From positions 8 through 64,007 of the forward strand of contig CAZHIA010000007.1 in assembly GCA_964532425.1 (NCBI GenBank): DNA of 64,000 nt. The letters are read 5' to 3'. The stretch is from an uncultured Candidatus Saccharibacteria bacterium. Lineage in GTDB: Bacteria; Patescibacteriota; Doudnabacteria; UBA920. Below the pieces are notes generated by a model. It worked only from the letters and a program-made list of their open reading frames with translations. It was not told where the DNA came from and ran no database searches. The translations under genes and the position numbers were made by a program. Below are positions 28,340 through 57,151 of this stretch, in pieces. How positions within the stretch are numbered: position 1 is the first letter of the stretch; each line of letters begins with the position of its first letter.

Positions 28340-28385
28340 TTTGAGTGTCAGGGCATATATCAAGGGTGTATGTTTTGGATGCTTA

Positions 28386-29159: not shown

Positions 29160-29186
29160 TTAGCACTTGACAGCCTAGAGTGCTAA
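29160..29186. promoter_or_regulatory. CIRCE operator (HrcA binding site) TTAGCACTT-N9-GAGTGCTAA.
   Basis: Matches the CIRCE consensus TTAGCACTC-N9-GAGTGCTAA with one mismatch. Lies upstream of hrcA. Confidence 0.8.
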
Positions 29187-29199
29187 TAGTAAAATAGTT

Positions 29200-29226
29200 T
29201 TAGCACTCAAATATGGGAATTGCTAA
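29200..29226. promoter_or_regulatory. Second, degenerate CIRCE-like element TTAGCACTC-N9-AATTGCTAA.
   Basis: The left half is perfect and the right half partly matches. It is 13 nt downstream of the first CIRCE. Confidence 0.5.
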
Positions 29227-29286
29227 CTGTAGTGCAGGGCCGTGCCCTGCCCTCAAGAAAGCAGGCCGAGGGCCTGCACTACATCT

Positions 29287-30045
29287 ATGGACAATCCTGA
29301 AATTACAACCCGGCAAGCGAAGATCCTCGCTGCCATCGTGAAAGAGAATTGCGACACCGGCGAGCCGGTGGCGAGCGCCGATTTGGTGGAAAAATACCAG
29401 CTCGACGTGAGCACGGCCACTATCCGCAACGAGATGGCGGCTTTGGAGAAGCTGGGATATATTTACCAACCGCACACTTCTTCCGGCCGCGTGCCGACGG
29501 ACAAAGGCTTTCGTTATTTCGTTAACCAGCTCATGGATAAGGTCAAGCTGACCTTAAAGGAGCAGGAGCTGCTCAAGCGGGAAATGATCAAGCTACAGAT
29601 TGCGCATCACGAGCTCGGTCGCCGATTGACTAAATTGCTCTCTGATCACAGCCAGCAGGCCAGCTTTGCCCTGTTTCCGGAAGAAGTCTCGACTATGGGA
29701 CTTTCAAAGATTTTGAATAATCCCGCCCTGCCGCCGGAAGATGCTCGCGAGATTGCCGAGTTCTTCGATAATATCGATTCCTATGCCGAACAGATGATGA
29801 AAGACTACGGCGAGAAAGGCCAGGCGGAAGCGTACATCGGCAAGGAACTGACCTTGTCTAAGAAGAGCGACTACTCCATGATCGTCTCGCCACTGAAACT
29901 CCCGAGCGGGAAAAAAGGAGTCATCGGACTTATTGGTCCGAAGTCCATGAAGTACGAAAAGAATTTGTCGCTGTTAGAATATATCGCGAAGTTATTGGGA
30001 AGCGGAGGAGGTGCGGCGATATTGGTCATGTTGTTTATTAAATAA
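29287..30045 (+). CDS. hrcA: Heat-inducible transcription repressor HrcA (short form, about 252 aa).
   Basis: N-terminal wHTH (TTRQAKILAAIVKENCDTGEPVASADL). Located downstream of CIRCE and upstream of grpE-dnaK-dnaJ. Start set at MDNPEI; the longer ORF beginning at 29242 starts inside a REP-like palindrome. Confidence 0.75.
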   Translation: MDNPEITTRQAKILAAIVKENCDTGEPVASADLVEKYQLDVSTATIRNEMAALEKLGYIYQPHTSSGRVPTDKGFRYFVNQLMDKVKLTLKEQELLKREMIKLQIAHHELGRRLTKLLSDHSQQASFALFPEEVSTMGLSKILNNPALPPEDAREIAEFFDNIDSYAEQMMKDYGEKGQAEAYIGKELTLSKKSDYSMIVSPLKLPSGKKGVIGLIGPKSMKYEKNLSLLEYIAKLLGSGGGAAILVMLFIK

Positions 30046-30128
30046 AATTAACAAATTCACAAATTAACAAATTGAAACCGCAGTAAATTTTATTTAATTT
30101 GTTAATTTTTACTTAATTTTGTTCAATT
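30046..30128. repeat. AT-rich MITE-like palindromic element (arms AAATTAACAAATT / AATTTGTTAATTT, centre CCGCAGT) in the hrcA-grpE spacer.
   Basis: Internal inverted repeat. A 36-nt near-identical block (AATTTTATTTAATTTGTTAATTTTTACTTAATT) is shared with 44625..44720. Confidence 0.6.
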
Positions 30129-30755
30129 ATGTCTGAAGACAATAACCAGAACGACGAGAATACCCAGCATGAAGAGGTGGCTACCGAACAGCTTCAAGCC
30201 GATCTCAATGCCATGACGGACAATTGGAAGAGAGCCTTGGCAGATTTTGAGAACTATCGCCGCAGGACCGAGGAGCAAAGCCAGGAACTGATTAATTTCG
30301 CCAAGGAAACCGTGATTGCACGGCTGCTACCGACCTTGGATGCGCTGGAGCAGGCGCTTAGGCATCTGCCGGAATACTCCGAAGATGAACCCCTCCTAAC
30401 CTCCCCTTTTGAAAAAGGGGAGGAAACTGCAGGAACCATAGCAAAAGAGAAGGGGTCTGCAGAAACCCCCTCTGTGCAAAAGAGGGGGCAGGGGGAGTTC
30501 AAAAAACAGTACGCGAACTGGCAAACAGGAGTGAACGGCATTATCCTGCAGCTCGACAAGACCTTGGAAGAACTCGGCGTGAAGAAAATTGAAGCCGTGG
30601 GCAAGAAATTTGACCCCAACTTCCATGAAGCGGTTCGCGAAGTGGAAGGGGAAGAGGACGGCATGGTCGTGGAAGAATACCAGACGGGGTTCGAGCTGAA
30701 CGGAAAAGTTATCCGGCCGAGCCAGGTAGTAATCAGCAAGAAAGTTCAAAATTAA
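30129..30755 (+). CDS. grpE: Nucleotide exchange factor GrpE, with a low-complexity insert.
   Basis: GrpE-like coiled-coil N-terminus and C-terminal beta domain (ILQLDKTLEELGVKKIEAVGKKFDPNFHEAV). Sits between hrcA and dnaK. Confidence 0.85.
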   Translation: MSEDNNQNDENTQHEEVATEQLQADLNAMTDNWKRALADFENYRRRTEEQSQELINFAKETVIARLLPTLDALEQALRHLPEYSEDEPLLTSPFEKGEETAGTIAKEKGSAETPSVQKRGQGEFKKQYANWQTGVNGIILQLDKTLEELGVKKIEAVGKKFDPNFHEAVREVEGEEDGMVVEEYQTGFELNGKVIRPSQVVISKKVQN

Positions 30756-30777
30756 AAATGAAAAATTCAAAGTTGAT

Positions 30778-31149
30778 ATGCAGGATTCAAACAAGCAGTT
30801 CAAGGTAGAACTGAAAAAGAGGGTCTATGTTTGGGTTTTGCGCTTAATAAGGTTCTTGAAATCCTTACCGAAAAATTATGTATTTGAGGTATTAGGGAAG
30901 CAGCTATTGAGAAGTGGTACAAGTATCCTGGCTAATTTTATAGAAGCTCAAGCTGCTTCTTCAAGAAAGGATTTTACAAATTTTATTAATCATAGTTTGA
31001 AATCAGCAAATGAAACGAAGGTTTGGTTAAGTCTGTTAAAAGATTCTTTATCTAAAGACTATGAACGTGAAGCAGGTGGGTTGTTAAAAGAAGCAATTGA
31101 ACTATCAAATATTTTTGGAAGTATTGTAACTACGTTGCGGATGAAGTAA
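30778..31149 (+). CDS. Four-helix-bundle protein (the family often found in 23S rRNA intervening sequences), AT-rich, apparently inserted between grpE and dnaK.
   Basis: About 120 aa helical protein matching the four-helix-bundle family (VLRLIRFLKSLPKNYVFEVLGKQLLRSGTSILANFIEAQAASSRKDF...). Flanked by imperfect inverted repeats (AAAATGAAAAATTCAAAGTT / ACTTTGAATTTTT). Confidence 0.7.
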   Translation: MQDSNKQFKVELKKRVYVWVLRLIRFLKSLPKNYVFEVLGKQLLRSGTSILANFIEAQAASSRKDFTNFINHSLKSANETKVWLSLLKDSLSKDYEREAGGLLKEAIELSNIFGSIVTTLRMK

Positions 31150-31197
31150 TTTTTAATTTTTCACTTTGAATTTTTAACTAACAACAGGAGTAATAGT

Positions 31198-33132
31198 ATG
31201 CCAAAAATTATAGGAATTGATTTAGGAACCTCAAACTCAGCCGCGTCTGTTATGGAAGGCGGCAAGCCGGTCATAATTCCGGCGGCGGAAGGCGCCAGCC
31301 TTGGCGGCAAGGCCTTTCCGTCGTATGTGGCGTTTACCAAAGAAGGCCAGCTCTTAGTGGGCGAGCCAGCCCGTCGGCAAGCCGTGACCAACCCGGACGG
31401 CACCATTTTTGAAGCCAAACGCAAAATGGGAACCAACTTCCGCTACACCGTCAACGGCAAGGAATACAGCCCGGAACAAATTTCCGCATTCATTTTGCAG
31501 AAGATCAAGAAAGATGCTGAAACCTTCCTGGGTGAACCGGTCGCTAAAGCCGTCATTACCGTGCCGGCCTACTTTGACGATGCCCAGCGCCAGGCTACTA
31601 AGAACGCCGGCGAGATCGCCGGGCTCGAAGTGGTGCGCGTCATCAACGAGCCGACCGCGGCTGCCTTTGCTTATGGCCTCGATAAGTCTTCCTCCAAAGA
31701 TCAGAAGATTTTGGTTTTTGACCTCGGCGGTGGTACGCTCGATGTGACCATTATGGATTTTTCAGAGATCGACAACCAGGCCACCTTTGAAGTACTGGCC
31801 ACCTCAGGCGACACCCAGCTCGGCGGCAAGGACATGGACAAGGCTCTGATCGATTACATCGTGAACACCTTCAAGCAGGAAAACAGCGTAGATTTGAACA
31901 ATGACAAGATGGCTATGAACCGCGTTAGGGAAGCGGCGGAAAAAGCCAAGATCGAATTATCAACCACCTTGGAGACCGACGTAAACCTGCCATTCATTAC
32001 GGCTGACCAGAACGGTCCCAAGCACTTGCAGATGAAGATTACCCGCGCCAAGCTCGAAGAGCTCATTAAACCCATCGTGGACCGCATGCGCCACCCGGTC
32101 GAGCAGGCTATCAGTGATGCCAAGCTGACCCCGCAGCAGATCGACAAGATCATCTTAATCGGCGGTCCGACCCGTATGCCCGCAGTCAAGAAATTCGTGG
32201 AAGACTACATTGGTAAGCAGGTGGAAGGCGGTATTGACCCCATGGAGGCTGTAGCCAAGGGTGCGGCCATCCAGGCTGGCATTCTGGGCGGCGATGTCCA
32301 GGGCAAAGAAATCTTGCTGCTTGATGTCACACCGTTGACCATGGGTATTGAAACGCTCGGCAGCGTAATGACCCCCATGATCCCGCGCAATACGACCGTG
32401 CCGACATCTAAAACCGAGACATTCTCGACTGCGGCCGATAACCAGACCTCCGTGGAAGTCCGTGTCTACCAGGGCGAGCGTCCGTTGGCTCCGGATAATA
32501 AATTTTTAGGCAATTTCCAGTTGGACGGCATTCCTCCGGCGCCGCGCGGCGTACCGCAGGTGGAAGTCACGTTCGACATTGACGCCAACGGTATTTTGAC
32601 GGTCAAAGCTAAGGACAAGGCTACGGGCAAGGAACAACATATTACCATCCAAGGGTCTTCCAACCTGTCCAAGGACGAGATTGAGCGCATGAAGAAGGAA
32701 GCCGAAGCCCATGCGGCAGAGGACCGGAAGCGCAAAGAGACCATCGACGCCCGCAACCAGGCCGATACGCTGATCTCCGTTTCCGAACGCACGCTTAAAG
32801 ATGCCGCCTCGACAAGCTCGGGGTCTTCGACCGGCTCCAAAGTTACTGATGAGATGAAAAAAGAAGTTGAGGAAAAGATCAAGGCTTTAAAGGATGTCAA
32901 AGACAAGGATGATGTGGATGCCATAAAGAAAGCTATGGACGAACTTTCCACTGCCATCCAGAAGGTTGGCGCGGCTATGTACCAGAGCCAGCAGCCGGAA
33001 GCCGGCAGTCCGAAACCGGAAGCGGGAGCTAATCCGGAGGGGCAAAACCCTTCGTCCGCCCAAGGCGGATCAGGGTCTAATGGAGGCCCCGTTGATGCCG
33101 AATTTTCTGAAGTCAACAATCAAAATAAATAG
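31198..33132 (+). CDS. dnaK: Molecular chaperone DnaK (Hsp70).
   Basis: Canonical Hsp70 motifs [23 protein letters not shown] and [11 protein letters not shown]. 644 aa. Confidence 0.97.
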
Positions 33133-33220
33133 TTTATAATGAAGGTAATTCGCCGCACGGCGAATTACCTTCAAAAGATTTAAAGCGGTGCCGGAATATC
33201 CGGCATTTGCAAACACAAAA

Positions 33221-33961
33221 ATGGACTTCAAACGATTCGTTCTTTGCTTGCTAATCATCTTCATGGGCGTATTTATTTACGTGCGCATCATGTCTTTGGG
33301 TGATGAGCATAGTCGGTTTAACCAGACAACCCGAATCCAACTGGGCAGATTTGCCGTTCTGCGCACGCTCTTTGGCCTGCACAGCGCGGGGGATGCGCGA
33401 GCCGAGTACCTCAAAGCATCAGGACCTATTAGTGTGGAGATTGTCCAGGCGGAAAGCCTGAATCTGCCGCAGGAGGTCATTGATGATTTTACCAGCAAGG
33501 TCAAAGAATACACGGGCCGCCAAACCGTCTTGTATAACATTGATACCGTAAAGCGCGGTTCTTTGAGCGATGCCGATATTAATGATATTATCGCCACTAA
33601 CCGCAGGCATGTTTCGCCGGCCGAGACAAACCTGTTCGTGATTTATGCGGACGATTTTAACAGTAAGACGGATGAAGTTGGCCGGACCGTGAGAGATTTC
33701 GGCATGGTCATTTCTTCAACCCGCCTCCAAGACCTGACCAGGCAATCTCCGAAAGCGCTCAATAGCTATATTCTCTCCACCATGCTTCACGAGTTCGGCC
33801 ACCAGCTCGGCCTTGATCATGTTGGCGACGACCGCTGCATCATGAACAAAGATATCGAAGCCTCTCCGGAACAGTCGTCATTCATAGTCTCATATACGCC
33901 GACTTCGTTTTGCGACAAGGAATTGGAACAGCTGAAGGGGATTAAGGCGGCATTGCAGTAA
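33221..33961 (+). CDS. Membrane-anchored zinc metalloprotease of the metzincin / archaemetzincin-like type.
   Basis: HEFGHQLGLDH (HExxHxxGxxH) followed by C..M and Cys residues. N-terminal TM helix. Start chosen at MDFKRF; the ORF could begin at a GTG at 33188. Confidence 0.6.
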   Translation: MDFKRFVLCLLIIFMGVFIYVRIMSLGDEHSRFNQTTRIQLGRFAVLRTLFGLHSAGDARAEYLKASGPISVEIVQAESLNLPQEVIDDFTSKVKEYTGRQTVLYNIDTVKRGSLSDADINDIIATNRRHVSPAETNLFVIYADDFNSKTDEVGRTVRDFGMVISSTRLQDLTRQSPKALNSYILSTMLHEFGHQLGLDHVGDDRCIMNKDIEASPEQSSFIVSYTPTSFCDKELEQLKGIKAALQ

Positions 33962-34021
33962 GGTGTTAACTTTATTTGTTCGGTGTATGTCTGAGAAGTT
34001 ACAAATTCACACTAAAAAATT

Positions 34022-34330
34022 ATGAACGACAACAAACCATCCCAGCCCGAGAGCGGGCAGCAGATACAGATTAAGATCACTGACGAAACCCTGAGGGGAT
34101 CGTACGCGAATATGCTCCAAGTAGCCCATACTTCCGAGGAGTTCTTTCTGGATTTTATGAATATCATGCCGCCTGCGGGCATTGTCTCCGCCCGGGTCAT
34201 TGTTTCTCCCGGCCACATCAAGCGGATGATAGCGGCAATGCAGGAGAACCTGAAACATTACGAAGAGCAGTTTGGCGAGGTGAAGGCCGCAGCGGTTCCT
34301 GACCACCGAATTGGATTCAAGACCGAATAA
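34022..34330 (+). CDS. Small conserved hypothetical protein, DUF3467-like.
   Basis: About 100 aa. The motif SYANMLQVAHTSEEFFLDFMNIMPP...VSPGHIKRMIAAMQENLKHYEEQFG resembles the DUF3467 family. Recalled from memory, not searched. Confidence 0.45.
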   Translation: MNDNKPSQPESGQQIQIKITDETLRGSYANMLQVAHTSEEFFLDFMNIMPPAGIVSARVIVSPGHIKRMIAAMQENLKHYEEQFGEVKAAAVPDHRIGFKTE

Positions 34331-34411
34331 CTAACCGATAAACACAGATGAAAAACTGATGAACACGGATCCGTGTTTATCTGTTTGCAGTTAATCAGTG
34401 TTAATCACTGT

Positions 34412-35560
34412 ATGAACAAGAATTACTACGACATTTTAGGTGTTTCAAAATCCGCTTCGCAGGAAGAGATTAAGCGCGCGTACCGCAAGTTGGCGCATCA
34501 GTATCATCCTGACAAAGGCAATGGCAACGAGGAAAAATTCAAGGAAGTCAACGAAGCGTACCAGGTCCTGGGAAGCGAGGACCGGCGCCGGCAGTATGAT
34601 ACGTTTGGAACCACCTCGAACCAGCCGCCCGGCGGGGGGTTCGGCGGATTTAACTACCAGGGAGAGAATCCTTTTGGGGATTTTGGATTTGGCGGCTACG
34701 GCGGTGAAGCGGGTTTTGATTTTGGCGACATCTTTGGCGACATCTTCGGGACCCGGACCGAGCGGGCCAGTCGCCGAAACCGTGGCATTGACCTGGAGAT
34801 GGCACTGAAGCTCACGTTCGAGGAGGCGGTCTTTGGGGTGGAAAAAACCATCACGGTCGAAAAACAGGATGCCTGTGCCACCTGCAGCGGCAGCGGGGCT
34901 GAGCCGGGATCTAAAATAGTGACCTGTTCCAAGTGTCACGGCCAGGGACAGATCCGCACTCAGCGGCGTACGATTTTCGGCATGGTGGCATCGTCGACGA
35001 CTTGTGATATGTGTTCGGGGACGGGTAAGGTCCCGGAAACGCCTTGCCACACCTGCAAAGGTAGCGGCGTGGTCCGGCAGGAAAAAACCATCAAGGTTAA
35101 AATTCCAGCTGGTATCGATGACGGGCAGCGCATTCGCGTAGCTGGGGAAGGGGAAGCGGGGTACCGCGGCTCCACTCCTGGTGATTTGTTTTTGGTGATT
35201 CAAGTTGAGCCGTCTAAGGAATTCACTCGGGACGGTTTTACGCTGCATAAGGAATTGCCAGTCAGTTTTACACAGGCTACGCTGGGTGCCCGGTTGATCG
35301 TTAAAACCCTGGATGGTGACATTGAGTTGAAGATTCCGGCCGGCACCCAATCGGGCACTGTTCTTAAGGTTAAGGACAAAGGCGTGCCGAACCTGTCAGG
35401 TAAAGGCAGAGGAGACCTGCTCATTACGGTCCGGGTGGTGGTACCGAACAAATTAAATAAGAAAGAAAAAGAGCTGCTCAAGCAACTAGCCGAAATTCGG
35501 GGTGAGTCTGTGGAGGTGGATCCCGGGTTCTGGGATAACATCCGGGATTCGTTTACATAA
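34412..35560 (+). CDS. dnaJ: Molecular chaperone DnaJ.
   Basis: J-domain (NYYDILGVSKSASQEEIKRAYRKLAHQYHPDK), G/F region, four CxxCxGxG zinc motifs and a C-terminal domain. Confidence 0.93.
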   Translation: MNKNYYDILGVSKSASQEEIKRAYRKLAHQYHPDKGNGNEEKFKEVNEAYQVLGSEDRRRQYDTFGTTSNQPPGGGFGGFNYQGENPFGDFGFGGYGGEAGFDFGDIFGDIFGTRTERASRRNRGIDLEMALKLTFEEAVFGVEKTITVEKQDACATCSGSGAEPGSKIVTCSKCHGQGQIRTQRRTIFGMVASSTTCDMCSGTGKVPETPCHTCKGSGVVRQEKTIKVKIPAGIDDGQRIRVAGEGEAGYRGSTPGDLFLVIQVEPSKEFTRDGFTLHKELPVSFTQATLGARLIVKTLDGDIELKIPAGTQSGTVLKVKDKGVPNLSGKGRGDLLITVRVVVPNKLNKKEKELLKQLAEIRGESVEVDPGFWDNIRDSFT

Positions 35561-35645
35561 AAACAGCGCGTGCGCTGTTTTTTTGATTTTTCTGAATTTT
35601 TGTGCTATAATATATTCAAAAGTTCAATCCGAAGAAACAAAATCC

Positions 35646-36191
35646 ATGTCTGTACATGAAGTTACTACACTCCTCCAGAATTTCAACTGGCACACGCCCA
35701 GCTGGGATTTGTTTATTTTGGGTTTTTGGGCCCTGGGCAGCATTTTGTACGCCTTTACTGCGGGCCGCGGCCGCGTCATTAATATTTTGCTCAGCATCTA
35801 CATCGCCAAGCTCATGGTCTATGAAGCGCCGTTCCTGACTCATGTGGTATCGGGGAAACTGCCCACCACCATGGTGTCTCTGCAGCAGCTTGCTACGTTT
35901 GTCTTGGTCTTTTTGGTACTGTTCTTATTCCTCGGCAGGTATGCCTTCCGTACTTCTGCGGATGGCCGTCAGGCTGGAGCGATCTTGTTTGGTGTTGTAT
36001 TCTCGTTTTTGCAGATTGGGCTGCTCATAAGTATTATTCTCCATTATCTGCCCGCCGGGGCTCAAAGCGCATTCGGCCCCCTTATCCAACTTGTCTTTTT
36101 AAGCAGTATGGCAGGCTTTGTCTGGCTTGCTGCGCCATTGGCTTTTCTTATCTTCCTCGGCAAATTTATTGCTGACCCGAACGAATTATGA
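35646..36191 (+). CDS. Small polytopic membrane protein, possibly CvpA-like.
   Basis: Four predicted TM helices in about 180 aa. The family assignment is tentative. Confidence 0.45.
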   Translation: MSVHEVTTLLQNFNWHTPSWDLFILGFWALGSILYAFTAGRGRVINILLSIYIAKLMVYEAPFLTHVVSGKLPTTMVSLQQLATFVLVFLVLFLFLGRYAFRTSADGRQAGAILFGVVFSFLQIGLLISIILHYLPAGAQSAFGPLIQLVFLSSMAGFVWLAAPLAFLIFLGKFIADPNEL

Positions 36192-36580
36192 CCGCAAATA
36201 AACATATCCTGCTTGTCGTCGACGACGATACGCTCATTTTGAATACCCTGACAAAACGATTTTCGAATTGGGATCTGAATGTCTATACGGCCACCACCCA
36301 GAAGGAAGCCCGAACAATTCTGGATTCAGTCACGCCCGAGGTAGTCATTTTGGATCTGATGCTGAAAGGCGAGGTTAGCGAAGGATTGTTGGATTACATG
36401 CAAAGCCAAGAGCGCCTGGCGGATGTACCGGTGCTTGTGCTGACTAATATGGACAAACCGGAACTCCGCCGCGTGTTGCTCTCGCGCGGGGTCAAAGAGT
36501 ATATCATCAAGGGCAGCATTAGCTTGGATGACTTGTATAAGAAGGTAGTAGGGTATTTGGAGCCGCAGCGAAACATGTAA
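36188..36580 (+). CDS. Stand-alone response-regulator receiver domain (CheY-like).
   Basis: KHILLVVDDD...VILDLMLKGE...PVLVLTNMDKP...KGS. No output domain. Its start overlaps the upstream gene's stop. Confidence 0.7.
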   Translation: MTANKHILLVVDDDTLILNTLTKRFSNWDLNVYTATTQKEARTILDSVTPEVVILDLMLKGEVSEGLLDYMQSQERLADVPVLVLTNMDKPELRRVLLSRGVKEYIIKGSISLDDLYKKVVGYLEPQRNM

Positions 36581-36664
36581 CCTTTGACCATTGACATTTG
36601 ATAAAACCGCAGCCAAAAGGCTGCGGTTTAAAAGTCAAATGTTAAATGTCACCTGTCAAATGTC
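36578..36664. repeat. MITE-like palindromic element with a central GC hairpin (AAACCGCAGCC-AAAA-GGCTGCGGTTT) that doubles as a bidirectional terminator, and arms made of TTGAC heptads (TTGACCATTGACATTTGA).
   Basis: Left and right arms are reverse complements. The stop codons of the convergent genes 36188..36580 and 36649..37575 fall inside the arms. Confidence 0.65.
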
Positions 36665-37575
36665 TTCGAGCTCCATCGTGCAAAGATTCCGGTCGATATC
36701 ATTCGACTCGTTTTTTGTTTGAGACAGAGCTCTCCGGCTTCCACGGTGCCTCCGCGCTGGCGGATGGTGTCTTCCAGGAGGTTATTGATGGCAAGGGCGG
36801 AAGAATTGGTGGCATACCCGTTGATGACTAAAAATCGGGCATTGTCCGAGAGCAGTTGTACGCACTCGGTCAGCATCTTGGGCAAGTCCTTGTTGAACTT
36901 CCAGGTCTTGCCGGTCGGGGAGTGGCCAAAGGCTGGCGGGTCCATGATGATGCCGTCATAGGTGTTGCCGCGCTTGAGTTCACGGTTGACGAATTTTGCC
37001 GCATCGTCCAGGATCCAACGGACTGAGTCGGCTGGTAACTGGTTCAGGGTATGGTTTTCGTTAGCCCAGGTGATGGCCGGCTTGCTGGCATCGACATGGG
37101 TAACATGGCATCCGGCTTTCGCGAGAACCATGGTTGCGCCGCCGGTATAGCCGAATAAGTTAAGAATTTTATATTTTTCTATTTTTATATTTTTCAATCT
37201 GTCTATCATGAATTCCCAATTGGCTGCCTGTTCGGCGAACAGTCCTGTGTGTTTGAACGGGGAAAGTTTGAGCAGGAATTTGACCGGATCACCGGACTGG
37301 CCATCGGGGAGAGGGAAGCTAGCTATCCATGGATTCGGCAGCTGTTTTTTTATGTCCCAGTACCCTTTGTCTTCTCCGCTGGCTGACCTGAACGTGGCAT
37401 GCGTTCTATTCCACTCTGTATCCGGCAGGGATCTTCGCCAGATAATTTGCGGGTCGGGTCGTTGCAAAATAACCTGCCCCCAGCGCTCCAGCCGATAGCC
37501 GTCGCCGGTATCAAGGAGTTCAAAATCGGGGAAATGTTTAAATGTCTCTAATAGCATGTATGAATCGATAATCAA
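36649..37575 (-). CDS. Class I SAM-dependent methyltransferase, probably an RlmI/RlmK-like rRNA methyltransferase.
   Basis: Motif I LNLFGYTGGATMVLA. DPPAFGHS (the DPP(Y/F) motif of N/C5 methyltransferases). About 308 aa. Confidence 0.7.
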   Translation of the reverse strand: MIIDSYMLLETFKHFPDFELLDTGDGYRLERWGQVILQRPDPQIIWRRSLPDTEWNRTHATFRSASGEDKGYWDIKKQLPNPWIASFPLPDGQSGDPVKFLLKLSPFKHTGLFAEQAANWEFMIDRLKNIKIEKYKILNLFGYTGGATMVLAKAGCHVTHVDASKPAITWANENHTLNQLPADSVRWILDDAAKFVNRELKRGNTYDGIIMDPPAFGHSPTGKTWKFNKDLPKMLTECVQLLSDNARFLVINGYATNSSALAINNLLEDTIRQRGGTVEAGELCLKQKTSRMISTGIFARWSSKTFDR

Positions 37576-37661
37576 AATGTATAGTAACTATACCATATTT
37601 TGCCCATCATCATGAAAACGCCATGGCAGGGGAGCCATGGCGTTCGGACATGATTGGATGT

Positions 37662-38069
37662 TTACTCCGCGGCTGTAATGTTGCCGAGTACAAAGCTGTC
37701 GAGCGAGCCTTCGTACGTAACGATAACTTTTTTTCCGATAAGGGAGGAAAAATCGCGGCTGGTTTTGAGATAGATATTCCGCTCGGGGGTGGCAAGCATG
37801 AGATTGCCCTTGGCCCGGTTATTGGATTCTTTCAGAACGCCTTCCCATGAGCTGCCTGCCTGCTTGGTGGTCGTTGTTGCGGCTGGTGCGGGTGTGGAGG
37901 CCTGTTGTTGCTCCTGCTTTTGCGCTTCGCTGTTCGGAACTGCTTCCTCATGCGGATTGCGGGCGAAGAACCAAATGACCGCGGCGATAATGGCAAGTAC
38001 TACAATGGCATACCCCCAGTAGGTTTTGATGATTTTTCCCATAATTATGCTAGATAATGTTTCATACAT
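37662..38069 (-). CDS. Hypothetical membrane-anchored protein (about 125-135 aa).
   Basis: N-terminal TM helix, Q/A/T-rich linker and small C-terminal domain. Start ambiguous, with no strong RBS. Confidence 0.45.
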   Translation of the reverse strand: MYETLSSIIMGKIIKTYWGYAIVVLAIIAAVIWFFARNPHEEAVPNSEAQKQEQQQASTPAPAATTTTKQAGSSWEGVLKESNNRAKGNLMLATPERNIYLKTSRDFSSLIGKKVIVTYEGSLDSFVLGNITAAE

Positions 38070-38287
38070 AGTGTAGCGGTTTTACGGCTTTTGTCAAAGC
38101 ATAAAAATTCCTAAGAAGTCTTAGGGGCTTTTATGGCGAGGCAGACCGCGCCCTGCACTGGATGGTGCAGGGCGGGGATTCCGCCTCGTGGCCCTGCAGG
38201 GCCACTTCGTTGTCCGGGGCAGGGGAGACTAAGGTCCGGCGGGGATACATCCTACGCTAAAGCTTCGGAGTACTGGAGTCGGTCGCC

Positions 38288-38575
38288 TCACGCTGCGCTT
38301 AGATACCCTCTGACCATTTGTCTCAAAGTAACCTTTCCTTTGGTTGTTTTGAAGTAGGATTCTCTTCGTAAAGCGTCTTTCTTGGACGGAAAGGCTTCGT
38401 AGAAGATTAGTTCAAGAGGGCGTCGGTCTTTCGTTGACACGTTTTTCCCGGAATTATGATCGCGTACTCGGGTTTTTAAATTCTCGGAATAACCAATATA
38501 AAACAGCCTATCTTTGAGGCTGCGAAGTATATACACATAATGAAATTGTATTGGCATATAGTTAGCGGTTACCAT
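38288..38575 (-). CDS. GIY-YIG nuclease superfamily protein (UPF0213-like).
   Basis: YVYILRS...LFYIGYSENLKTRVRDHN...KTTKGK matches the GIY-YIG core. The true start may be the internal Met (MPIQFHYVYIL). Confidence 0.7.
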   Translation of the reverse strand: MVTANYMPIQFHYVYILRSLKDRLFYIGYSENLKTRVRDHNSGKNVSTKDRRPLELIFYEAFPSKKDALRRESYFKTTKGKVTLRQMVRGYLSAA

Positions 38576-38747
38576 TGTTTATAGTATACCACTAGTATAA
38601 AACACAAGCCGTGTACCGCTCGCTACGACATAAATGTCGGCTCGGGTACACGGCATGAACCAGTCGCACATAGTTTCGCGCCCATAAACTTACTCAAGTT
38701 CGTGGCCGTGCCATGAACCGGAGCGAATTTGATGAGCGACTGGTTCA

Positions 38748-38823
38748 TGGTGGGTCCGGCGGGGATCGAACCCGCGACAAACGGCTTAAAAGGCCGCTGC
38801 TCTACCAACTGAGCTACAGACCC
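38748..38823 (-). tRNA. tRNA-Lys (anticodon UUU), with encoded CCA.
   Basis: Reverse complement reads GGGTCTGTAGCTCAGTTGGTAGAGCAGCGGCCTTTTAAGCCGTTTGTCGCGGGTTCGATCCCCGCCGGACCCACCA. Canonical cloverleaf, anticodon loop CTTTTAA. Confidence 0.9.
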
Positions 38824-38835
38824 GGATGGATCAAA

Positions 38836-38906
38836 CAATTGACCTTTAACCTTTGACATTTAACCACCCTGCAGCTGTCAAAGGTCAAATGTCACCTGTT
38901 AAATGT
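38836..38906. repeat. MITE-like palindromic element (TTGACCTTTAACCTTTGACATTTAACC - CCTGCAGCTG - TCAAAGGTCAAATGTCACCTGTTAAATG).
   Basis: Central CTGCAG and TTGAC-heptad arms, the same architecture as 36578..36664 and 58078..58147. Confidence 0.6.
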
Positions 38907-39028
38907 TTCATTGCCTTGATATTCTATAATAAATCGCATTTTTTTTCAAGGGCGCGTAGCTTTGAGGATTTATCCACTGGCAATGTCTATTTATTTATGC
39001 CATAATAATAACGAACTGTAAAAAATCC

Positions 39029-39565
39029 ATGAAAAATAAAAATCAAAGCAAGAGCCTCTTCCATTCCAACAAGAGCGCGTCCGGCTTCACCCTTATCGAG
39101 TTACTTGTGGTGGTAGCTATTATCGCATTGCTTGCATCAGTTATTTTGGTTGGTATGTACCAAGCCCGGCAGAAGTCTCGGGATGCCAGACGTATTGCTG
39201 ACATGGCTCAAATGAATACGGCTCTAGAGATTTATTTTAATACATATCGCGGGTATCCTGCGGATGACGATACCAACGGCCAGCCTGATAATTTTGACCA
39301 GTTTACCAGAGTTTTGCCCGTGGCTCCGGTGCCTCCTGACGGGACTTGTTCGGGTTCGACCCATAGCCCGGGGTCTTGTGGAGGAGCTAATCAGATCCCG
39401 TGCGGTATTCCTGCTAACACCTATTATTACGCTCCGACCGGAACCCCTCAGACCATCAATGGCGTTAAGGTGTATCCCGGGTATAATTACCTCTTTTGTC
39501 TTGGCGCTCCTACTGGGAATTTCAGTGCAGGTGAGCATGTGCTTACCGCCCAAGGCATTCGTTGA
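39029..39565 (+). CDS. Type IV pilin-like / pseudopilin protein with a prepilin-type N-terminal cleavage/methylation motif.
   Basis: GFTLIELLVVVAIIALLASV (class III signal, G-F-T-L-I-E) followed by a Cys-containing globular domain. Confidence 0.75.
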   Translation: MKNKNQSKSLFHSNKSASGFTLIELLVVVAIIALLASVILVGMYQARQKSRDARRIADMAQMNTALEIYFNTYRGYPADDDTNGQPDNFDQFTRVLPVAPVPPDGTCSGSTHSPGSCGGANQIPCGIPANTYYYAPTGTPQTINGVKVYPGYNYLFCLGAPTGNFSAGEHVLTAQGIR

Positions 39566-39643
39566 CATTCTGCCGTTTCAAATCCCGGCCTGCAAGACAG
39601 GCCGGGATTTTCATTTGCCCGCAAATCGGTATAATATGAACGT

Positions 39644-41122
39644 ATGCAGTTAACCTTGAATGAAATCAAAAGCCAGGTATACGCTAAACGGCCGATACTG
39701 GGGGAAATCATCGCTACTCATGGGCATCGCACGCTTTTGGACTATGCCAGGCAATATGCGGATAATTTAGCCGCGGTCGAGCCCGCCCGAAAACGCGATT
39801 TTGTCAATGTTGTGGCAGAAGAAGCCGGTCGGGTGCTTGGTGCGGCGACAGCTGAGAGCGTACGCCGTCATTTGAATAAATACTACTATGTTTCTACCAC
39901 CGACCACCATGGTCCGCTCAGTCATCCGTTTTTTTTGCATGCCAACCTGTTAGCCGCTGCCCCGCACGAGCACGCCGAGGCTGGCCATGAGCAATTTGTC
40001 GTATTGGCATGCAGTAATGTCTCGCTGAATAACTCCTCGTATCCCCGCGGCGTTTTATTCCACTCCCATTTGGGCGATGAAGTTTCGCTGAGGTATGTCA
40101 GTTTGTTTCCTTCCCGGGACCGGCACAGCCCGGTCTTCAACCAGCCGGCGTATTCCAGCCGGGCGGCAGCACTGTTGCGCCGCGAGCTGGAACAGACGGT
40201 GGCAGCGGGAGTCCCGCGGTCTCGTGTTGACGCAATTGTCGACCTGTTTGGCCGCGCGGCTTTTTCAGATCAGAATTACTCGGACCAAATTACCAGGATC
40301 AATGCGGAATTATGGCACATGTTTTTTCCCGTGCACAGGACTGCCCCTGGGCTGGTGACCTTGAGCCAGGAGCGTGTGACCTTGCTTTTGCTTGAACGCT
40401 ACCATCTATTCCAGGTAACTGACATACACCGGATCCTGTTTGACCCGGACATTCATCGGGAAGTGTTGGACCGTTTTGAGGGGATCCCCGGAGCCTTCAC
40501 GCTCCGCGAAGGTAGGGGAACGTTTCTGTTCTGGGGGTATGATCGCAAAACCCGATTGCGGTTCAAGCTGCTGCCGGAAGACGGATATCTTGTCTCCCCC
40601 GACCGGACGTTCCGCGTGCGGCTGAATCCGGAAGCTGTAGCTGTGGCTATCAGGGCGGGCGAACTCATCCCAAGCATGCTCGTAACCTTGCTGCTCTATT
40701 CGTGTTATTACGGGGTGAAGTGTTTGGGAGGGTTTAGCCAGGTCAACTATTTGACTTGGATGCAGCAGGCATATGCGAAAATTTTTCCTGCCGCTCAAGC
40801 CATGGGTGATACTAAAGCGCTGTGTGGCGATCTGGTGTTTGCGAATATTTCTCTCGGGAACGACGATACGGCTGCGGCAACCGGACTGGACTTTATTCTG
40901 TACGGGTCGGAAGACTCATATCAGCAGTTTTTAGATCTCTGTCATCGGCACACGTTGGCTGAAACGCTAGATCCTATCCTGCCCGTGCTGCACCGCATCC
41001 TCTATGCTGAAAGCAGTCCGGTCGAATATTCCGGCTCTACTTATGACCGGGAATTTAAGATAGTCAGGCATCCGGCCCAGCCGCTTTTTAAGGTGCGTAA
41101 CCATGCCTTTTGCCCCGTTTAA
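39644..41122 (+). CDS. Hypothetical protein (492 aa), no family recognised.
   Basis: Long clean ORF. The spacer between the pilin gene and this ORF contains a short hairpin. Confidence 0.5.
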   Translation: MQLTLNEIKSQVYAKRPILGEIIATHGHRTLLDYARQYADNLAAVEPARKRDFVNVVAEEAGRVLGAATAESVRRHLNKYYYVSTTDHHGPLSHPFFLHANLLAAAPHEHAEAGHEQFVVLACSNVSLNNSSYPRGVLFHSHLGDEVSLRYVSLFPSRDRHSPVFNQPAYSSRAAALLRRELEQTVAAGVPRSRVDAIVDLFGRAAFSDQNYSDQITRINAELWHMFFPVHRTAPGLVTLSQERVTLLLLERYHLFQVTDIHRILFDPDIHREVLDRFEGIPGAFTLREGRGTFLFWGYDRKTRLRFKLLPEDGYLVSPDRTFRVRLNPEAVAVAIRAGELIPSMLVTLLLYSCYYGVKCLGGFSQVNYLTWMQQAYAKIFPAAQAMGDTKALCGDLVFANISLGNDDTAAATGLDFILYGSEDSYQQFLDLCHRHTLAETLDPILPVLHRILYAESSPVEYSGSTYDREFKIVRHPAQPLFKVRNHAFCPV

Positions 41123-41573
41123 GGTGCTTTGCTGGGGCACATGGCTGCCATGAGCGTATTGTCCAGGGATTTCGTTATGGGACAGTGAACCGTCCGTGTT
41201 GACAAAAGTGAGTAGCAACGATACCATATCCGTATATGAAGCGCTTCGCTCAAAATTTCTGGTTTTATTTTATGTTCGGCCTTAAGGCCGGAAGTTTTGA
41301 GTTGATCAGATCGCAGATACGCGGATAGCGCGGATGACGCTGAACTTTCGACTCCTGACTTCCGGCCTTAAGAGGGGCCGGAGTTTTTTATTTTTGGGGT
41401 CTGTTGCCGAATGCCATTTTGACTGTAATTGCAGAATTTCGGCCATTCGGCCAAAAAAATTTTTCCGCTTAGCCTACAGCTAAACATCAAAATTTATTTT
41501 GCCCGACTGTCTCGAGATTCTGCAATCTCGTCTGAAAAGCGCATTCGGCAATAGACCCATTCAAGGAGGAATC

Positions 41574-41792
41574 ATGTCGCTGTTTGATTTGGTGGGGACC
41601 CATGTCACCATTAATACGCCTGAACACCCACATACGCGCGTGCGGGTCGTCCATGTGTTTCGTGCGCCCGAAGAAAACTGCCAGCGTGCCGGCACTGAAC
41701 AAAAGGCCGAGCTATGGTGCGAGGTTGTACTACCCGATAACCAGGTAGTCACTGTGCAAAACTTGACCATGGAACGAGTGTTGTCGCACTAA
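41574..41792 (+). CDS. Small hypothetical protein (72 aa).
   Basis: AAGGAGG RBS 4 nt before the ATG (MSLFDLVG...). Confidence 0.5.
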   Translation: MSLFDLVGTHVTINTPEHPHTRVRVVHVFRAPEENCQRAGTEQKAELWCEVVLPDNQVVTVQNLTMERVLSH

Positions 41793-41813
41793 GGAATGTA
41801 CCAAGGAGGTTAT

Positions 41814-42050
41814 ATGGATGCTGTTATTAATGATTCCAGCCAGCGAGACCCTGGGAAAGAACCGGTATTTCTGCACTTGCCTGACCATTGCATTATGGTG
41901 CGCCTGGGAGAATACCATGTGCGCTGCGTCTACCATGATACACCGCCGTTAGTTATTAGCGATCCATCTGTTATTACCGCAGCGCGGTTGAAGGAAGAAT
42001 GGGGGAGCGCGGGGGATCGGATGGGAGGTAGGCCGGTGCCTGCAGCCTGA
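41814..42050 (+). CDS. Small hypothetical protein (78 aa).
   Basis: AAGGAGG RBS 5 nt before the ATG (MDAVINDSS...). Sits 21 nt after the preceding small gene. Confidence 0.5.
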   Translation: MDAVINDSSQRDPGKEPVFLHLPDHCIMVRLGEYHVRCVYHDTPPLVISDPSVITAARLKEEWGSAGDRMGGRPVPAA

Positions 42051-42254
42051 TTATGGAGCGAGGTCTGTATCGTCATGTGTGGGGAGATACTCATGTCTCC
42101 CCATTTTTATTTTGTCGGTCGTCTATAGCTTTACTGGAACCGCCTGGGGGTTTTCCGCAACACCCTATGTATGGTATGATTAATCATGCGGGATTAGACT
42201 AAAATTCCCAGAATTAAGCACAGGAAGCGCGGAGTATAATTAATTTTTACGTTC

Positions 42255-43820: not shown

Positions 43821-43907
43821 TTAGTTCACGGATACGCTGATATCACGGATGACGCAGAAGTGCCATCCGCGGGGTCCGCGTACTCCGCGTATCAGCGAGA
43901 TAACTGT

Positions 43908-57145: not shown

Positions 57146-57151
57146 ATTGAT

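Follow-up and report, generated by a model that had tools for sequence, protein, structure and literature searches.

MITEs such as Correia, ERIC, Chunjie and QMITE (reviewed in PMC10969869) are shorter than 500 bp, non-coding, AT-rich and mostly intergenic. They occur as several diverged copies per genome, have terminal inverted repeats and give transcripts that fold into stable stem-loops, and Chunjie resides within operons without destroying them. The five elements described here, E1 to E5, resemble MITEs in all of these respects. They were found in a 64-kb window, by which we mean the whole stretch of DNA analyzed (64,000 nucleotides). Unlike MITEs, which consist of a core with short inverted termini, each element here is a palindrome over its whole length. 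Its arms are built of tandem 7-8-nt units, and the apex is conserved between E4 and an element of a relative (L199) that has different arms. Also unlike MITEs, no target-site duplication was seen for the elements, and no cognate IS was found in the window ORFs scanned or in 1.6 Mb of loci. Target-site duplications of MITEs are known to decay in old copies (PMC10969869).

REP/BIME sequences (RAYT, IS200/IS605-type HUH) and PATEs are likewise based on hairpins, make no target-site duplication, are dispersed in spacers including intercistronic ones and form many lineage-specific families. Unlike REP, in which a GTAG-type tetranucleotide precedes a 20-40-nt hairpin, the two families described below have no 5' GTAG motif and are 2-4 times longer, and unlike the situation in RAYT-linked REP/BIME, the 64-kb window showed neither a RAYT nor a TnpA gene. 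Rickettsia palindromic elements, reportedly described by Ogata and colleagues in 2000 and covered in summary by PMC10969869, are said to measure about 100-150 bp, to encode a conserved peptide and to have an alphaproteobacterial host. These are palindromic repeats located in-frame in essential genes and translated as extra loop segments, a property shared here by topA of the window and of L199 and by an RlmI-like methyltransferase gene of the relatives L138 and L177. However, most copies in our data are intergenic, and the Rickettsia elements have no heptad periodicity.

Heptanucleotide tandem repeats include cyanobacterial STRR, the TAACTGA repeats of Beggiatoaceae, Cyanobacteria and Bacteroidetes (PMC4679880) and the heptamers of Nostoc (10.1101/2022.06.06.494920). 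Our elements have in common with them a 7-nt unit, an intergenic location that is often near start codons, and TRAC-type cores. While those repeats are mostly perfect, head-to-tail and in one orientation, here four imperfect units per arm are combined with an inverted partner around a CYGCAG apex and dispersed as a family. E2 alone of the five also resembles a known dispersed repeat with an intrinsic-terminator-like core, to which it has no sequence relation and which belongs to another host phylum.

The host is a Candidatus Doudnabacteria-like CPR bacterium; its TopA homologues are assigned to Candidatus Doudnabacteria or Patescibacteria. Genomes of CPR/Patescibacteria are as a rule portrayed as small and streamlined, and little work has addressed the non-coding part of them. 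Our preferred reading, to which we assign a probability of roughly 0.6, is that E1-E5 represent two lineage-specific families in a larger class of AT-rich palindromic dispersed repeats of about 75-105 bp that spread by copying.

Two families of palindromic elements

A preliminary description of this DNA had reported five or more intergenic palindromes of a single family, with heptad arms and a C(T/C)GCAG centre, located exactly at gene boundaries. The five elements are indeed present (Table 1). Each is an inverted repeat of 75-104 bp with no ORF of its own, 25-45 nt of arm complementarity, a GC content of 17-38% (51.6% for the window) and the C(T/C)GCAG motif at its apex. The general picture of dispersed, non-coding, AT-rich, hairpin-forming repeats is supported. 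What does not hold is the single family, which survives as a shared architecture (inverted arms of TTRAC-type units, CYGCAG apex) and divides by sequence into family A (E2, E3, E5 and a lone arm in topA; termini AACA...TGTT) and family B (E1, E4; termini AATT...AATT). Heptads are correct for the three GC-medium copies, while the AT-rich copies of family B have units of about 8-9 nt, with significant periodicity mainly in the left arms. These two AT-rich copies, 30046-30128 and 44625-44720, do share a near-identical block of about 34-36 nt, as had been noticed. Exact placement at gene boundaries applies to E1, E2 and E4, which include the two copies within operons (hrcA|grpE and macB|ftsX) and the one over convergent stop codons, and not to E3 and E5. 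The lone arm in topA adds a sixth copy of families A and B in the 64-kb window.

Table 1. Positions, strands and layout of the palindromic elements and of the features adjoining them in the window.
Feature	Positions	Strand	Layout and context
E1, family B	30046-30128	.	GC 17%; octads AATTAAC AAATTCAC AAATTAAC AAATTGAA, centre CCGCAG, inverted AT-rich arm; occupies the hrcA|grpE gap completely, between stop codon and ATG
E2, family A (element under study)	36572-36666	.	Inverted repeat at the response regulator / RlmI-like methyltransferase junction; AACA + 4 heptads (TGTAACC TTTGACC ATTGACA TTTGATA), terminator-like core, 4 inverted heptads; overlaps both stop codons
Response regulator stop codon	36578-36580	+	Within E2
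RlmI-like methyltransferase stop codon	36649-36651	-	Within E2
E2 core hairpin	36604-36629	.	AAACCGCAGCC-AAAA-GGCTGCGGTTT
E3, family A	38834-38908	.	AACA + ATTGACC TTTAACC TTTGACA TTTAACC, centre CTGCAGCTG, 4 inverted heptads + TGTT; lies 10 nt ahead of tRNA-Lys and behind a promoter-like site
tRNA-Lys	38748-38823	-	
Promoter-like site	38949-38921	-	
E4, family B	44622-44725	.	GC 18%; AATTGATCAAAATTAAATAAAC... at start, AAAATTGAC x2, centre CTGCAGTT, inverted arm; fills the macB-ftsX gap, TTG start codon of ftsX inside its right end
E5, family A	58076-58151	.	Layout of E3, centre likewise CTGCAGCTG; 66 nt upstream of the pth start codon, within the 923-nt der-pth spacer
Lone family-A arm in topA	51304-51334	+	AACA ATTGACC TTTGACC ATTGACA TTTGAC
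topA	50254-52572	-	Hosts the family-A arm
Same class, other family	47337-47421	.	TCTACTAAATAC...GTATTTAGTAGA
Same class, GATTGACA-unit family	63721-63801	.	
Same class, AGCTTAT-unit palindrome	45995-46081	.	Between two ftsX-type genes
Same class, ACAAATCT/CTACAAAT-unit palindrome	55845-55935	.	
Same class, CGCGGATA-unit palindrome	62189-62278	.	Kin to 41281-41372 and 43803-43924

Smith-Waterman scores were compared with those of dinucleotide shuffles, a control of the kind that the preliminary description had proposed. Within families the copies align far better to each other than expected from shuffling (z = 8.3-17 among E2, E3 and E5; z = 11.7 for E1/E4). Of the six cross-family pairs, five score no better than chance (z = -1.1 to 0.3), and the remaining one, E1-E5, is borderline (z = 2.4, reached by 12 of 500 shuffles). 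The value of 17 belongs to E3 and E5, which are located 19 kb apart in unrelated contexts and show collinear homology. Identity within families is only about 65-85%, so nothing points to a recent burst.

The arms of family A consist of just four imperfect 7-nt units of the TTRAC type. In the six family-A arms, autocorrelation at lag 7 amounts to 0.68-0.72, compared to 0.23-0.30 after shuffling. Family structure and SIGNIFICANCE are both reflected in these controls, with pairwise z = 8-17 within families and such periodicity in none of 1000 shuffles. A one-arm pattern, RACA+(NNTRACM)x3+NNTRAC, has 8 matches in the window and none in 100 dinucleotide shuffles, and a two-arm pattern has 5 matches and none in shuffles; family-A-type arrays in the 64-kb window amount to seven arms plus the one in topA. 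A polarity of the elements was considered and set aside, as similarity between left arms is slightly higher than between left and right arms, yet alignment scores in the same and in opposite orientation are inconsistent.

Occupied and empty sites in relatives

The relatives compared (L numbers) are distant, with 40-75% identity in DnaJ and 71-83% in TopA (genus-to-family distance), so that an empty site represents gain or loss over long times and not observed transposition. At orthologous positions the same sequences are not there, an outcome on which the preliminary description had made the mobile-element interpretation depend; sites are empty or have unrelated palindromes. The hrcA|grpE junction is empty in 8 of 22 relatives and has unrelated palindromes in most others. 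In L196, whose TopA (82%) makes it the nearest of the relatives found, macB and ftsX share 1 nt, and in L142 and L154 they are 25-28 nt apart. The der|pth spacer is 24-49 nt in L199 and L196, compared to 923 nt in the window. No family-A-type palindromes were detected in 745 kb of relatives. Pairs at non-orthologous sites score high, namely E4 with an element at the response regulator|methyltransferase junction of L130 (z = 12.6) and E2 with L033 (z = 8.3), whereas pairs at orthologous sites are weak and nominally significant (E2/L135, E4/L199 and E1/L129; z = 2.9-3.5). Sequence comparison shows that the copies share descent (collinear termini, periodic arms, CYGCAG apex), the sites that they occupy are empty or otherwise filled in relatives, and homologous copies are located at unrelated loci in other genomes. 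These findings support the view that the elements behave as small selfish repeats of the MITE/REP type, unlike promoters or restriction-system sites.

Another possibility is that structured spacers evolved in place: each junction would need a hairpin, as a terminator, a protector of mRNA 3' ends or a processing site, while slippage of heptamers and correction within the palindrome remodel its freely drifting sequence without any movement. The same idea was proposed earlier for the "variable but structured" STRR spacers of cyanobacterial nif operons. Among the long simple repeats of prokaryotes, heptanucleotide repeats are reported to be the most frequent, and slippage is given as their cause (Mrazek 2007, cited from PMC4679880). 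The response regulator|methyltransferase junction fits this idea, since it has a hairpin in all relatives examined, and in L135 TTGAC/TTAAC/ACATGTAAC heptads surround another terminator core at the position of E2 (z = 3.5). It is also consistent with an unrelated hairpin in the tRNA-Lys leader of L133 and with the centre aCTGCAGtt, which is common to E4 and its counterpart at the macB|ftsX junction of L199 in spite of different arms. However, hrcA|grpE and macB|ftsX can do without a hairpin, since the spacer is missing altogether in many relatives, and E3 and E5 are located upstream of genes and not at 3' ends. Evolution in place also does not explain the collinear homology of E3 and E5, non-orthologous homologues that are much stronger than the similarity at orthologous sites, or a copy within topA. 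The transcribed strand has no folding advantage either: in 70 tandem-gene contexts the sense strand folded better in 29 and the antisense strand in 35 (p = 0.31). We therefore consider evolution in place unlikely, although it deserves to be taken seriously, and prefer spread by copying.

Insertions in protein-coding genes

Insertion of an arm or of a whole element is tolerated in-frame in variable protein loops. The arm in topA is identical to the left arm of E3 in 28 of 31 positions (nhmmer E = 1.7e-6) and contributes the residues SNVNGQRSI to a hypervariable topoisomerase I loop. L197 and L200 lack this loop; it measures 27 nt in the window (the family-A arm) and in L196, and in L199 it corresponds to a 66-nt heptad palindrome. 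In L138 and L177 an in-frame heptad palindrome was found in a variable loop of the RlmI-like methyltransferase. TTRAC arrays in L143 and L148 are coding sequence for a VNGQKLKVN motif, showing that such arrays may also originate from an ORF, and the topA arm was for this reason judged by its 28/31 identity together with the indel pattern of the loop.

Folding and possible regulatory roles

Predicted RNA folds of the elements differ widely in stability. E2 reaches -42.2 kcal/mol on the plus and -43.5 on the minus strand (z = -9.8 and -8.1), while the corresponding values are -20.1 and -28.8 for E3, -31.1 and -17.3 for E5, and -20.7 and -14.4 for E4; E1 folds with -14.3 kcal/mol (z = -2.5). The core of E2 forms an 11-bp stem on either strand (-20.4 and -20.5 kcal/mol) from two inverted CYGCAG motifs, and whichever strand is read, a run of A precedes and a run of T follows this stem. 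It is followed by UUUA on the plus and UUUUAU on the minus strand and was not called by a consensus terminator scan. Folding gave no GC-rich stem in E1, E3, E4 or E5. The terminator function that the preliminary description had suggested for the elements in general is thus plausible for E2 alone. On this folding model E2 may well terminate both convergent transcripts, and the element under study is probably a bidirectional terminator embedded in a dispersed repeat. E3 probably belongs to the tRNA-Lys leader, as the tRNA gene is so close and a promoter-like site precedes the element on the minus strand (Table 1).

If the elements spread by copying, host effects would be mostly incidental, with each transcribed element giving a long hairpin. 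The apex of E2 would have become a canonical GC-rich stem with A and U runs that most likely terminates both transcripts, and the weak AT-rich hairpins in hrcA-grpE and macB-ftsX could be at most attenuation or processing marks. Selection at the RNA level was also considered; G-U asymmetry in E3, E4 and E5 is suggestive, and the idea was set aside because the 70 palindromes in tandem contexts gave the sense strand no advantage. At the gathering threshold, Rfam 15 matched two tRNAs only and no element, and at E <= 1 it gave only spurious miRNA-hairpin matches on other palindromes; an identity with a known RNA family was accordingly rejected.

Could the TTGAC(A/C) units be arrays of binding sites? 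They might be bound cooperatively by sigma-70/RNA polymerase, as promoter donors or sinks, by a nucleoid or partition protein or, on the RNA side, by a cold-shock/S1-type protein, each domain of which occupies about 7 nt and which would control whether the hairpin forms. The TTRAC core recurs at strict 7-nt spacing in six arms, and regulatory roles have been proposed for heptamer repeats in Beggiatoaceae (PMC4679880) and Nostoc (10.1101/2022.06.06.494920). Among the matches listed in a contig pattern scan, TRAC-type heptamer arrays occur across many phyla, some as inverted pairs, along with perfect tandem heptamers of Cyanobacteria, Acidobacteriota, Planctomycetota and others. However, in a scan of 29900-46200, which covers E1-E4, for sigma-70 sites with a TTGACA-like hexamer placed 16-18 nt before a TATAAT-like one, no call used a TTGAC unit of an element, and the sole call inside one was a weak TTAAAA/TAAAAT on the minus strand of E4. 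For E1-E4 this does not support the donation of -35 boxes envisaged in the preliminary description, and nothing was found in favour of its other suggestion, a partition site. A 7-bp spacing would place successive sites on different faces of the DNA helix, family B is weakly periodic, and positions of the elements relative to genes are inconsistent. Moreover, sister families in the same genome have the unrelated units AGCTTAT, ACTAAAT, CGCGGATA and ACAAATCT, so that no single binding protein explains the class. Binding arrays are in our view quite improbable.

The wider class of palindromes

Families A and B are accompanied in the window by further palindromes of the same class (Table 1). Homologues of 47337-47421 were found in at least six other genomes at non-orthologous sites (z = 14.3 with L162, positions 6189-6271), and those of 63721-63801 in L138, at a dnaK|M10 junction (z = 21), and in L033. 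The junction of two ftsX-type genes that harbours 45995-46081 is 3 nt long in L196 and 19 nt in L199. Related loci contain 457 inverted repeats in 809 kb (about 0.56 per kb), and the first 20 sequences gave 145 compared to 15 in the shuffled control. Long inverted repeats, 135 in number, fall into 20 multi-member clusters, several of them across many genomes and loci.

A PstI-like restriction-modification system, or palindrome formation nucleated at this site, might have left the CTGCAG centres as relics or use them as targets. CTGCAG lies within the central 16 nt of 5 of the 135 long inverted repeats, where about 0.4 are expected; CCGCAG, CTGCGG and CTGTAG variants occur in five more in related loci, and complementary flanks occur at 2.4% of CTGCAG sites compared to 0.2% of random positions. 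Yet the hexamer is not avoided, with 34 sites observed and 34.8 expected under a maximal-order Markov model (rank 31 of 64 palindromic hexamers), and the restriction-modification link raised in the preliminary description is not supported. In addition, coding sequence accounts for 27 of the 34 sites, the neighbourhood of the elements showed no gene for a restriction enzyme or DNA methylase, and other families of the class do without the motif, making this explanation very improbable.

TIGR are short-period, poorly conserved repeats reported from CPR genomes, in which two repeats of 8-12 nt alternate with two spacers of 9 nt to give a unit of about 36 nt, present in 5-15 tandem copies next to a Nop-domain Tas gene (PMC12045711). 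A guide-RNA array of this or the CRISPR type can be dismissed, being contradicted by the anatomy of the elements, which have a period of 7-8 nt, no spacers, a single inverted pair and dispersed copies, and by the lack of a Nop-domain ORF among 30 window ORFs scanned. A viral origin was rejected as well; IMG/VR gave no match to family A, B or TCTAC, and the sole two-arm match there was a TGACAAT array of another type.

Proposed mode of spread

Spread by copying remains the reading that we prefer, and the elements combine short, AT-rich sequence and inverted termini with several dispersed copies (pairwise z 8-17) and presence or absence at orthologous sites, as MITEs do. Target-site duplications, a feature the preliminary description had proposed to look for, were not seen above chance: the best flanking repeats of 2-5 nt (+/-4 nt slack) equal those of 2000 random pairs, with a mode of 3 nt. 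Neither transposase nor HUH genes were found among the 30 window ORFs scanned. Longer elements of these families would be bounded by the terminus pairs AACANTTGACC...GGTCAANTGTT or AATTGAWCAAAATT...AATTTTGWTCAATT; none was found in 1.6 Mb of loci, where long terminus pairs look like chance. We infer that the elements may owe their spread to an enzyme acting in trans, which copies them into permissive sites and is guided by the hairpin form of the DNA instead of cutting a duplex target. An IS200/IS605- or RAYT-like HUH mechanism would be the best fit of those considered, given the missing target-site duplications, the palindromy of the whole element and the conserved apex. Replication slippage, together with arm-to-arm correction inside the palindrome, could keep the arms periodic at 7-8 nt.

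A bolder proposal, which we regard as speculative and rather unlikely, is that Doudnabacteria-like CPR bacteria host an undescribed class of mobile hairpins, free of target-site duplications, with a CYGCAG apex, fast-evolving arms of 7-8-nt period and an apex-recognising enzyme. If this were true, recognition would depend on the apex and not, as in classical MITEs, on the termini, the hairpin arms would co-vary within a genome, and such hairpins would be so common that they split operons and are translated in essential genes such as topA.

In the loci analyzed, spacers of CPR/Patescibacteria are densely filled with periodic palindrome families of fast turnover, which split the conserved operons hrcA-grpE and macB-ftsX and are translated in topA and in an rRNA-methyltransferase-like gene. 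This opens a search for the enzyme that moves hairpins without target-site duplications in organisms with very few recognisable IS, and the recurring CYGCAG apex provides a concrete handle for this search. The elements are also relevant to binning and strain typing, and they affect annotation, as they supply stop and start codons and create spurious ORFs. Hairpins of the GTAG-type, REP-like kind are present elsewhere in the window.

Layout and sequence families

All five palindromic elements of the preliminary description (E1 to E5) were found at their places in the window, and the claims that two lie inside operons (E1, E4) and that one covers the stop codons of two convergent genes (E2) are correct. 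Location exactly at a gene boundary holds for E1, E2 and E4, while E3 and E5 lie upstream of genes. E2, E3 and E5 do have TTGAC-type heptad arms, in a common layout of AACA, four units, a short centre, four inverted units and TGTT, with the unit consensus (W)TTRAC(M) at a spacing of exactly 7 nt. The one-arm pattern matched eight times in the window and not once in 100 dinucleotide shuffles; the two-arm pattern matched five times, again with no match in shuffles. The lag-7 autocorrelation of the six family-A arms was 0.68-0.72 compared with 0.23-0.30 for shuffled sequence, a level reached by 0 of 1000 shuffles. E1 and E4, in contrast, have a GC content of 17-18% and consist of AAATTRAC-like units repeated about every 8-9 nt, and when autocorrelation is compared with shuffles, clear periodicity is confined to their left arms. 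The near-identical block common to these two copies is real.

Smith-Waterman scores relative to dinucleotide shuffles were well above chance within E2/E3/E5 (z = 11.5, 8.3 and 17.0) and for E1/E4 (z = 11.7), whereas five of the six cross-family pairs scored between -1.1 and 0.3, with E1-E5 borderline at 2.4. In this sample of six copies from one 64-kb window, these scores resolve two sequence families, A and B, rather than the single five-member family proposed initially. The two families are alike in architecture and in having C(T/C)GCAG at the apex, but their sequences cannot be aligned.

Positions of palindromic elements and other features in the window and in loci of related or matching genomes (L numbers); "variant" denotes CCGCAG, CTGCGG or CTGTAG
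Feature	Sequence	Position	Apex	Remarks
E1	window	30046-30128	variant	family B; AT-rich; exactly fills gap from hrcA stop to grpE start
E2	window	36572-36666	variant	family A; covers stop codons of response-regulator and convergent RlmI-like methyltransferase genes
E3	window	38834-38908	CTGCAG	family A; tRNA-Lys leader region, upstream of gene
E4	window	44622-44725	CTGCAG	family B; AT-rich; fills macB-ftsX gap; contains ftsX TTG start codon
E5	window	58076-58151	CTGCAG	family A; 66 nt upstream of pth
Single arm	window	51304-51334		family A; inside topA; 28/31 identical to E3 left arm; nhmmer E = 1.7e-6
Inverted repeat	L127	983-1068	CTGCAG	
Inverted repeat	L199	16269-16346	CTGCAG	
Inverted repeats	L199	5080-5150; 13637-13711	variant	
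TCTACTAAATAC...GTATTTAGTAGA family	window; L126; L162; L200	47337-47421; 3939-4017; 6189-6271; 18694-18789		conserved 12-nt termini
GATTGACA-unit palindromes	window; L138; L033	63721-63801; 8389-8477; 4832-4931		
topA with in-frame palindrome	L199	10001-12346		palindrome of 66 nt
Methyltransferase palindromes	L138; L177	14651-14730; 2260-2333		
Heptad arrays	L143; L148	15700-15745; 11960-12005		TTRAC-type, in conserved ORF
GTAG hairpins	window	about 10197-10247, 13920-13985, 17262-17435, 28930-28965, 29228-29283		REP-like
146-nt inverted repeat	window	41405-41550		overlaps start of ORF 41499-41792
TTTTCCGCTTARCCTACRGCTAAACATCAAAATTT recurrences	L130; L126	4401-4534; 10007-10079		
TRACNNN array	L201 (IMG/VR)	2040-2210		
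Perfect palindromes	window	27517-27558; 28296-28341		42-46 bp; flank ORF 27538-28248
CIRCE-like repeats	window	29160-29226		two in tandem, upstream of hrcA
dprA-pth spacer	window	57062-57458		TTGACA-17-TATAAT at 57117; inverted repeat 57175-57305
Spacer motifs	L196	6743-7016		
der-pth spacer	window	58134-58933		ORF 58428-58850, opposite strand; hairpin 58868-58896
tRNA-Val region	window	62544-62800		tRNA-Val 62613-62689; 3' end copy ~62770-62790

Of 135 long inverted repeats from related loci, 5 have CTGCAG in their central 16 nt, where about 0.4 would be expected, and flanks are complementary at 2.4% of CTGCAG sites compared with 0.2% of random positions. It is therefore a real, recurrent apex common to elements with unrelated arms. 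CCGCAG also occurs in one REP-like hairpin of L197.

Comparison with related genomes

About 745 kb of related sequence was compared, comprising 74 syntenic loci from a metagenome scan with DnaJ and four further loci of 16-22 kb found via TopA homologues (L196, L197, L199 and L200). TopA homologues sharing 71-83% identity carry the labels Candidatus Doudnabacteria or Patescibacteria. The relatives are distant, and the comparison documents gain and loss at junctions, not a recent transposition event. Between hrcA and grpE there is essentially no spacer in 8 of 22 relatives, and the rest have palindromes unrelated in sequence (among them ACTAAAT-type in L162, ACGGATC-type in L165, GTCATTGCGAGG-type in L138 and L148). 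The macB and ftsX genes overlap (TAATG) in L196, the closest relative found, and lie 25-28 nt apart in L142 and L154; at this junction L199 carries an octad palindrome whose arms are unlike those of E4 but whose centre, aCTGCAGtt, is the same, and L200 yet another element. The der-pth gap is 24 nt in L199, 49 nt in L196 and 923 nt in the window.

The main alternative is that required hairpins evolved in place. The junction of the response-regulator and methyltransferase genes is occupied by some hairpin in every relative, usually a GC-rich terminator stem between periodic A-rich and T-rich units, and in L135 by E2-like TTGAC/TTAAC/ACATGTAAC units around a different core. Orthologous sites also have weak similarities (E4 with L199, z = 2.9; E1 with L129, z = 3.4; E2 with L135, z = 3.5). 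Similarity is far stronger at non-orthologous sites: E4 with the L130 element between the response-regulator and methyltransferase genes (z = 12.6), E2 with L033, a MAG labelled Saccharibacteria (z = 8.3), 63721-63801 with the dnaK-M10 junction of L138 (z = 21) and 47337-47421 with hrcA-grpE of L162 (z = 14.3). Mobile families would be expected to behave in this way, and it is the opposite of what the preliminary description named as refuting mobility (ancient, immobile sequences kept at orthologous positions). We consider evolution in place unlikely. The mobile-element reading is best supported: copies descend from common ancestors, and the same families have spread to unrelated loci in different genomes. 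The window holds seven high-scoring TTRAC arms plus the topA arm, and no palindromic TTRAC array occurs in the 745 kb of relatives, so family A is amplified specifically in the source genome.

The peptide encoded by the topA arm, SNVNGQRSI, falls in a loop that is missing from L197 and L200; the L196 loop has the same length but a far more divergent sequence. The L199 loop is a palindrome of GGGTAGA and CACCCCT heptads, and a comparable loop of the RlmI-like methyltransferase is encoded by an AGATTTA/TTTAATC palindrome in L138 and L177. These are complete heptad palindromes translated in frame, which shows that copies are tolerated in protein loops. Rickettsia palindromic elements are known to insert in frame as well (PMC10969869), and the present elements resemble them in this respect. 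The arrays of L143 and L148 are coding sequence (GTTAATGGTCAAAAGTTAAAAGTTAAT encodes VNGQKLKVN), so not every TTRAC array is an element.

Possible functions

Elements have strong hairpin potential; the complete E2 hairpin has a folding energy of -42 to -43 kcal/mol, with z of about -8 to -10. E2 alone of the five has a GC-rich core, an 11-bp stem of about -20.4 kcal/mol whichever strand is folded, bordered on each side by runs of A and T. Because convergent genes flank E2 and a terminator-like hairpin is there in every relative, a role in bidirectional termination is likely. The folds of E1 and E4 are weak (-14 and -21 kcal/mol). For single elements, one strand gives a better fold than the other; over 70 palindromes between co-directional genes, no sense-strand advantage was present (better in 29, worse in 35, p = 0.31), and we have no evidence of RNA structure as a conserved trait. 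The elements matched no Rfam family.

Promoter donation by TTGACA hexamers is unsupported, a promoter scan covering E1-E4 having found no sigma-70-like site that uses TTGAC units, and a partitioning role is likewise unsupported. A PstI-like restriction-modification link is unsupported too: the window has 34 CTGCAG sites where 34.8 are expected, which places the motif 31st among 64 palindromic hexamers and is no signal of restriction avoidance. TIGR arrays, known from CPR bacteria as tandem 36-nt units with spacers adjoining a Tas gene (PMC12045711), do not match the anatomy of the elements.

Classification and possible mechanism

Compared with a published feature list (PMC10969869), the elements resemble MITEs in being of similar size and AT-rich, in having inverted termini and several dispersed copies, and in being present in some relatives and absent from others. 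They differ in target-site duplications, since flanking repeats are no longer than at random positions. Families A and B also lack the GTAG hallmark of REPs, although GTAG hairpins occur elsewhere in the window. The elements are therefore MITE/REP-like and members of neither group. No partner transposase was found in the 64 kb, and no long elements sharing family termini in the related loci. Movement probably follows a hairpin-recognising HUH/RAYT-like route leaving no target-site duplication, the best fit among mechanisms considered given the missing duplications, full palindromy and conserved apex. Slippage probably keeps the arms periodic; heptanucleotides are the commonest long simple repeats in prokaryotes according to a summary of Mrazek 2007 (PMC4679880). 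Effects on expression would be mostly incidental, E2 excepted. In kind the elements belong with the known small palindromic repeats, as a variant marked by periodicity of the arms, a CYGCAG apex that is conserved and copies lying in frame. The literature searched held no description of such repeats in Patescibacteria, and to our knowledge none has been described in this phylum before.

Other palindromes and neighbouring features

At least six further palindromes of the same build occur in the window with other units (AGCTTAT, ACTAAAT, ACAAATCT, CGCGGATA, ACGGATA and GATTGACA). A gapped scan returned 457 inverted repeats in 809 kb, with 145 in the first 20 sequences versus 15 in the shuffled control, and the 135 long ones gave 20 multi-member clusters. 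A 17-member cluster includes the TCTACTAAATAC...GTATTTAGTAGA elements; these are found in at least seven genomes, at junctions that differ, and form the clearest MITE-like family in our data. Palindromes with GATTGACA units are at least 77% identical between genomes despite unrelated neighbour genes.

The GTAG hairpins (TGTAGGGGCGG...CCGCCC and TGTAGTGCAGGCC...GGCCTGCACTACA), which have GTAG at their start, form a separate, GC-rich class, of a type usually linked to RAYT transposases. Motif TTTTCCGCTTARCCTACRGCTAAACATCAAAATTT of the 146-nt inverted repeat recurs in L126 and, nested within a family-B-like element, in L130. Among the matches listed from genome contigs (L002-L121) and IMG/VR (L201), tandem TRACNNN heptamers, such as TGACAAC, TAACAAT and TGACCAA, are common; they come from Cyanobacteria, Acidobacteriota, Planctomycetota, Bacteroidota, Omnitrophota and CPR genomes. 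The pattern of the genome-contig scan is also satisfied by perfect tandem heptamers from other phyla. In several loci (L009, L014, L022, L047, L081, L201) two arrays oppose one another on the two sides of a short centre, the arrangement found in the window.

The perfect palindromes (AATTCAGTGGGGAAGTTGTACA|TGTACAACTTCCCCACTGAATT) flank a PaaX_M-domain gene, the first overlapping its start codon and the second preceding msrB, and are probably operators of this regulator. The CIRCE-like repeats (TTAGCACT-N9-AGTGCTAA) are conserved in position in L143, L144 and L148. The dprA-pth spacer, with a promoter-like sequence, a long-range inverted repeat (ACTTGCAAGTG / ACTTGCAAATAGG) and no Rfam match, may be an unannotated small RNA; L196 has the spacer's motifs as well. 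The der-pth spacer exceeds that of L196 or L199 by about 870 nt. It has a 140-aa ORF that matches no Pfam family, and after it a hairpin resembling a bidirectional terminator and TTTATAAC heptads. The tRNA-Val gene lies amid tRNA-like fragments, one of them a duplicate of its 3' end (GAATCCAGTATTGTCCACCA). The region also has a hairpin, ACCTGCCTGCCGGCAGGCAGGT, whose core is found again at 28900-28919.
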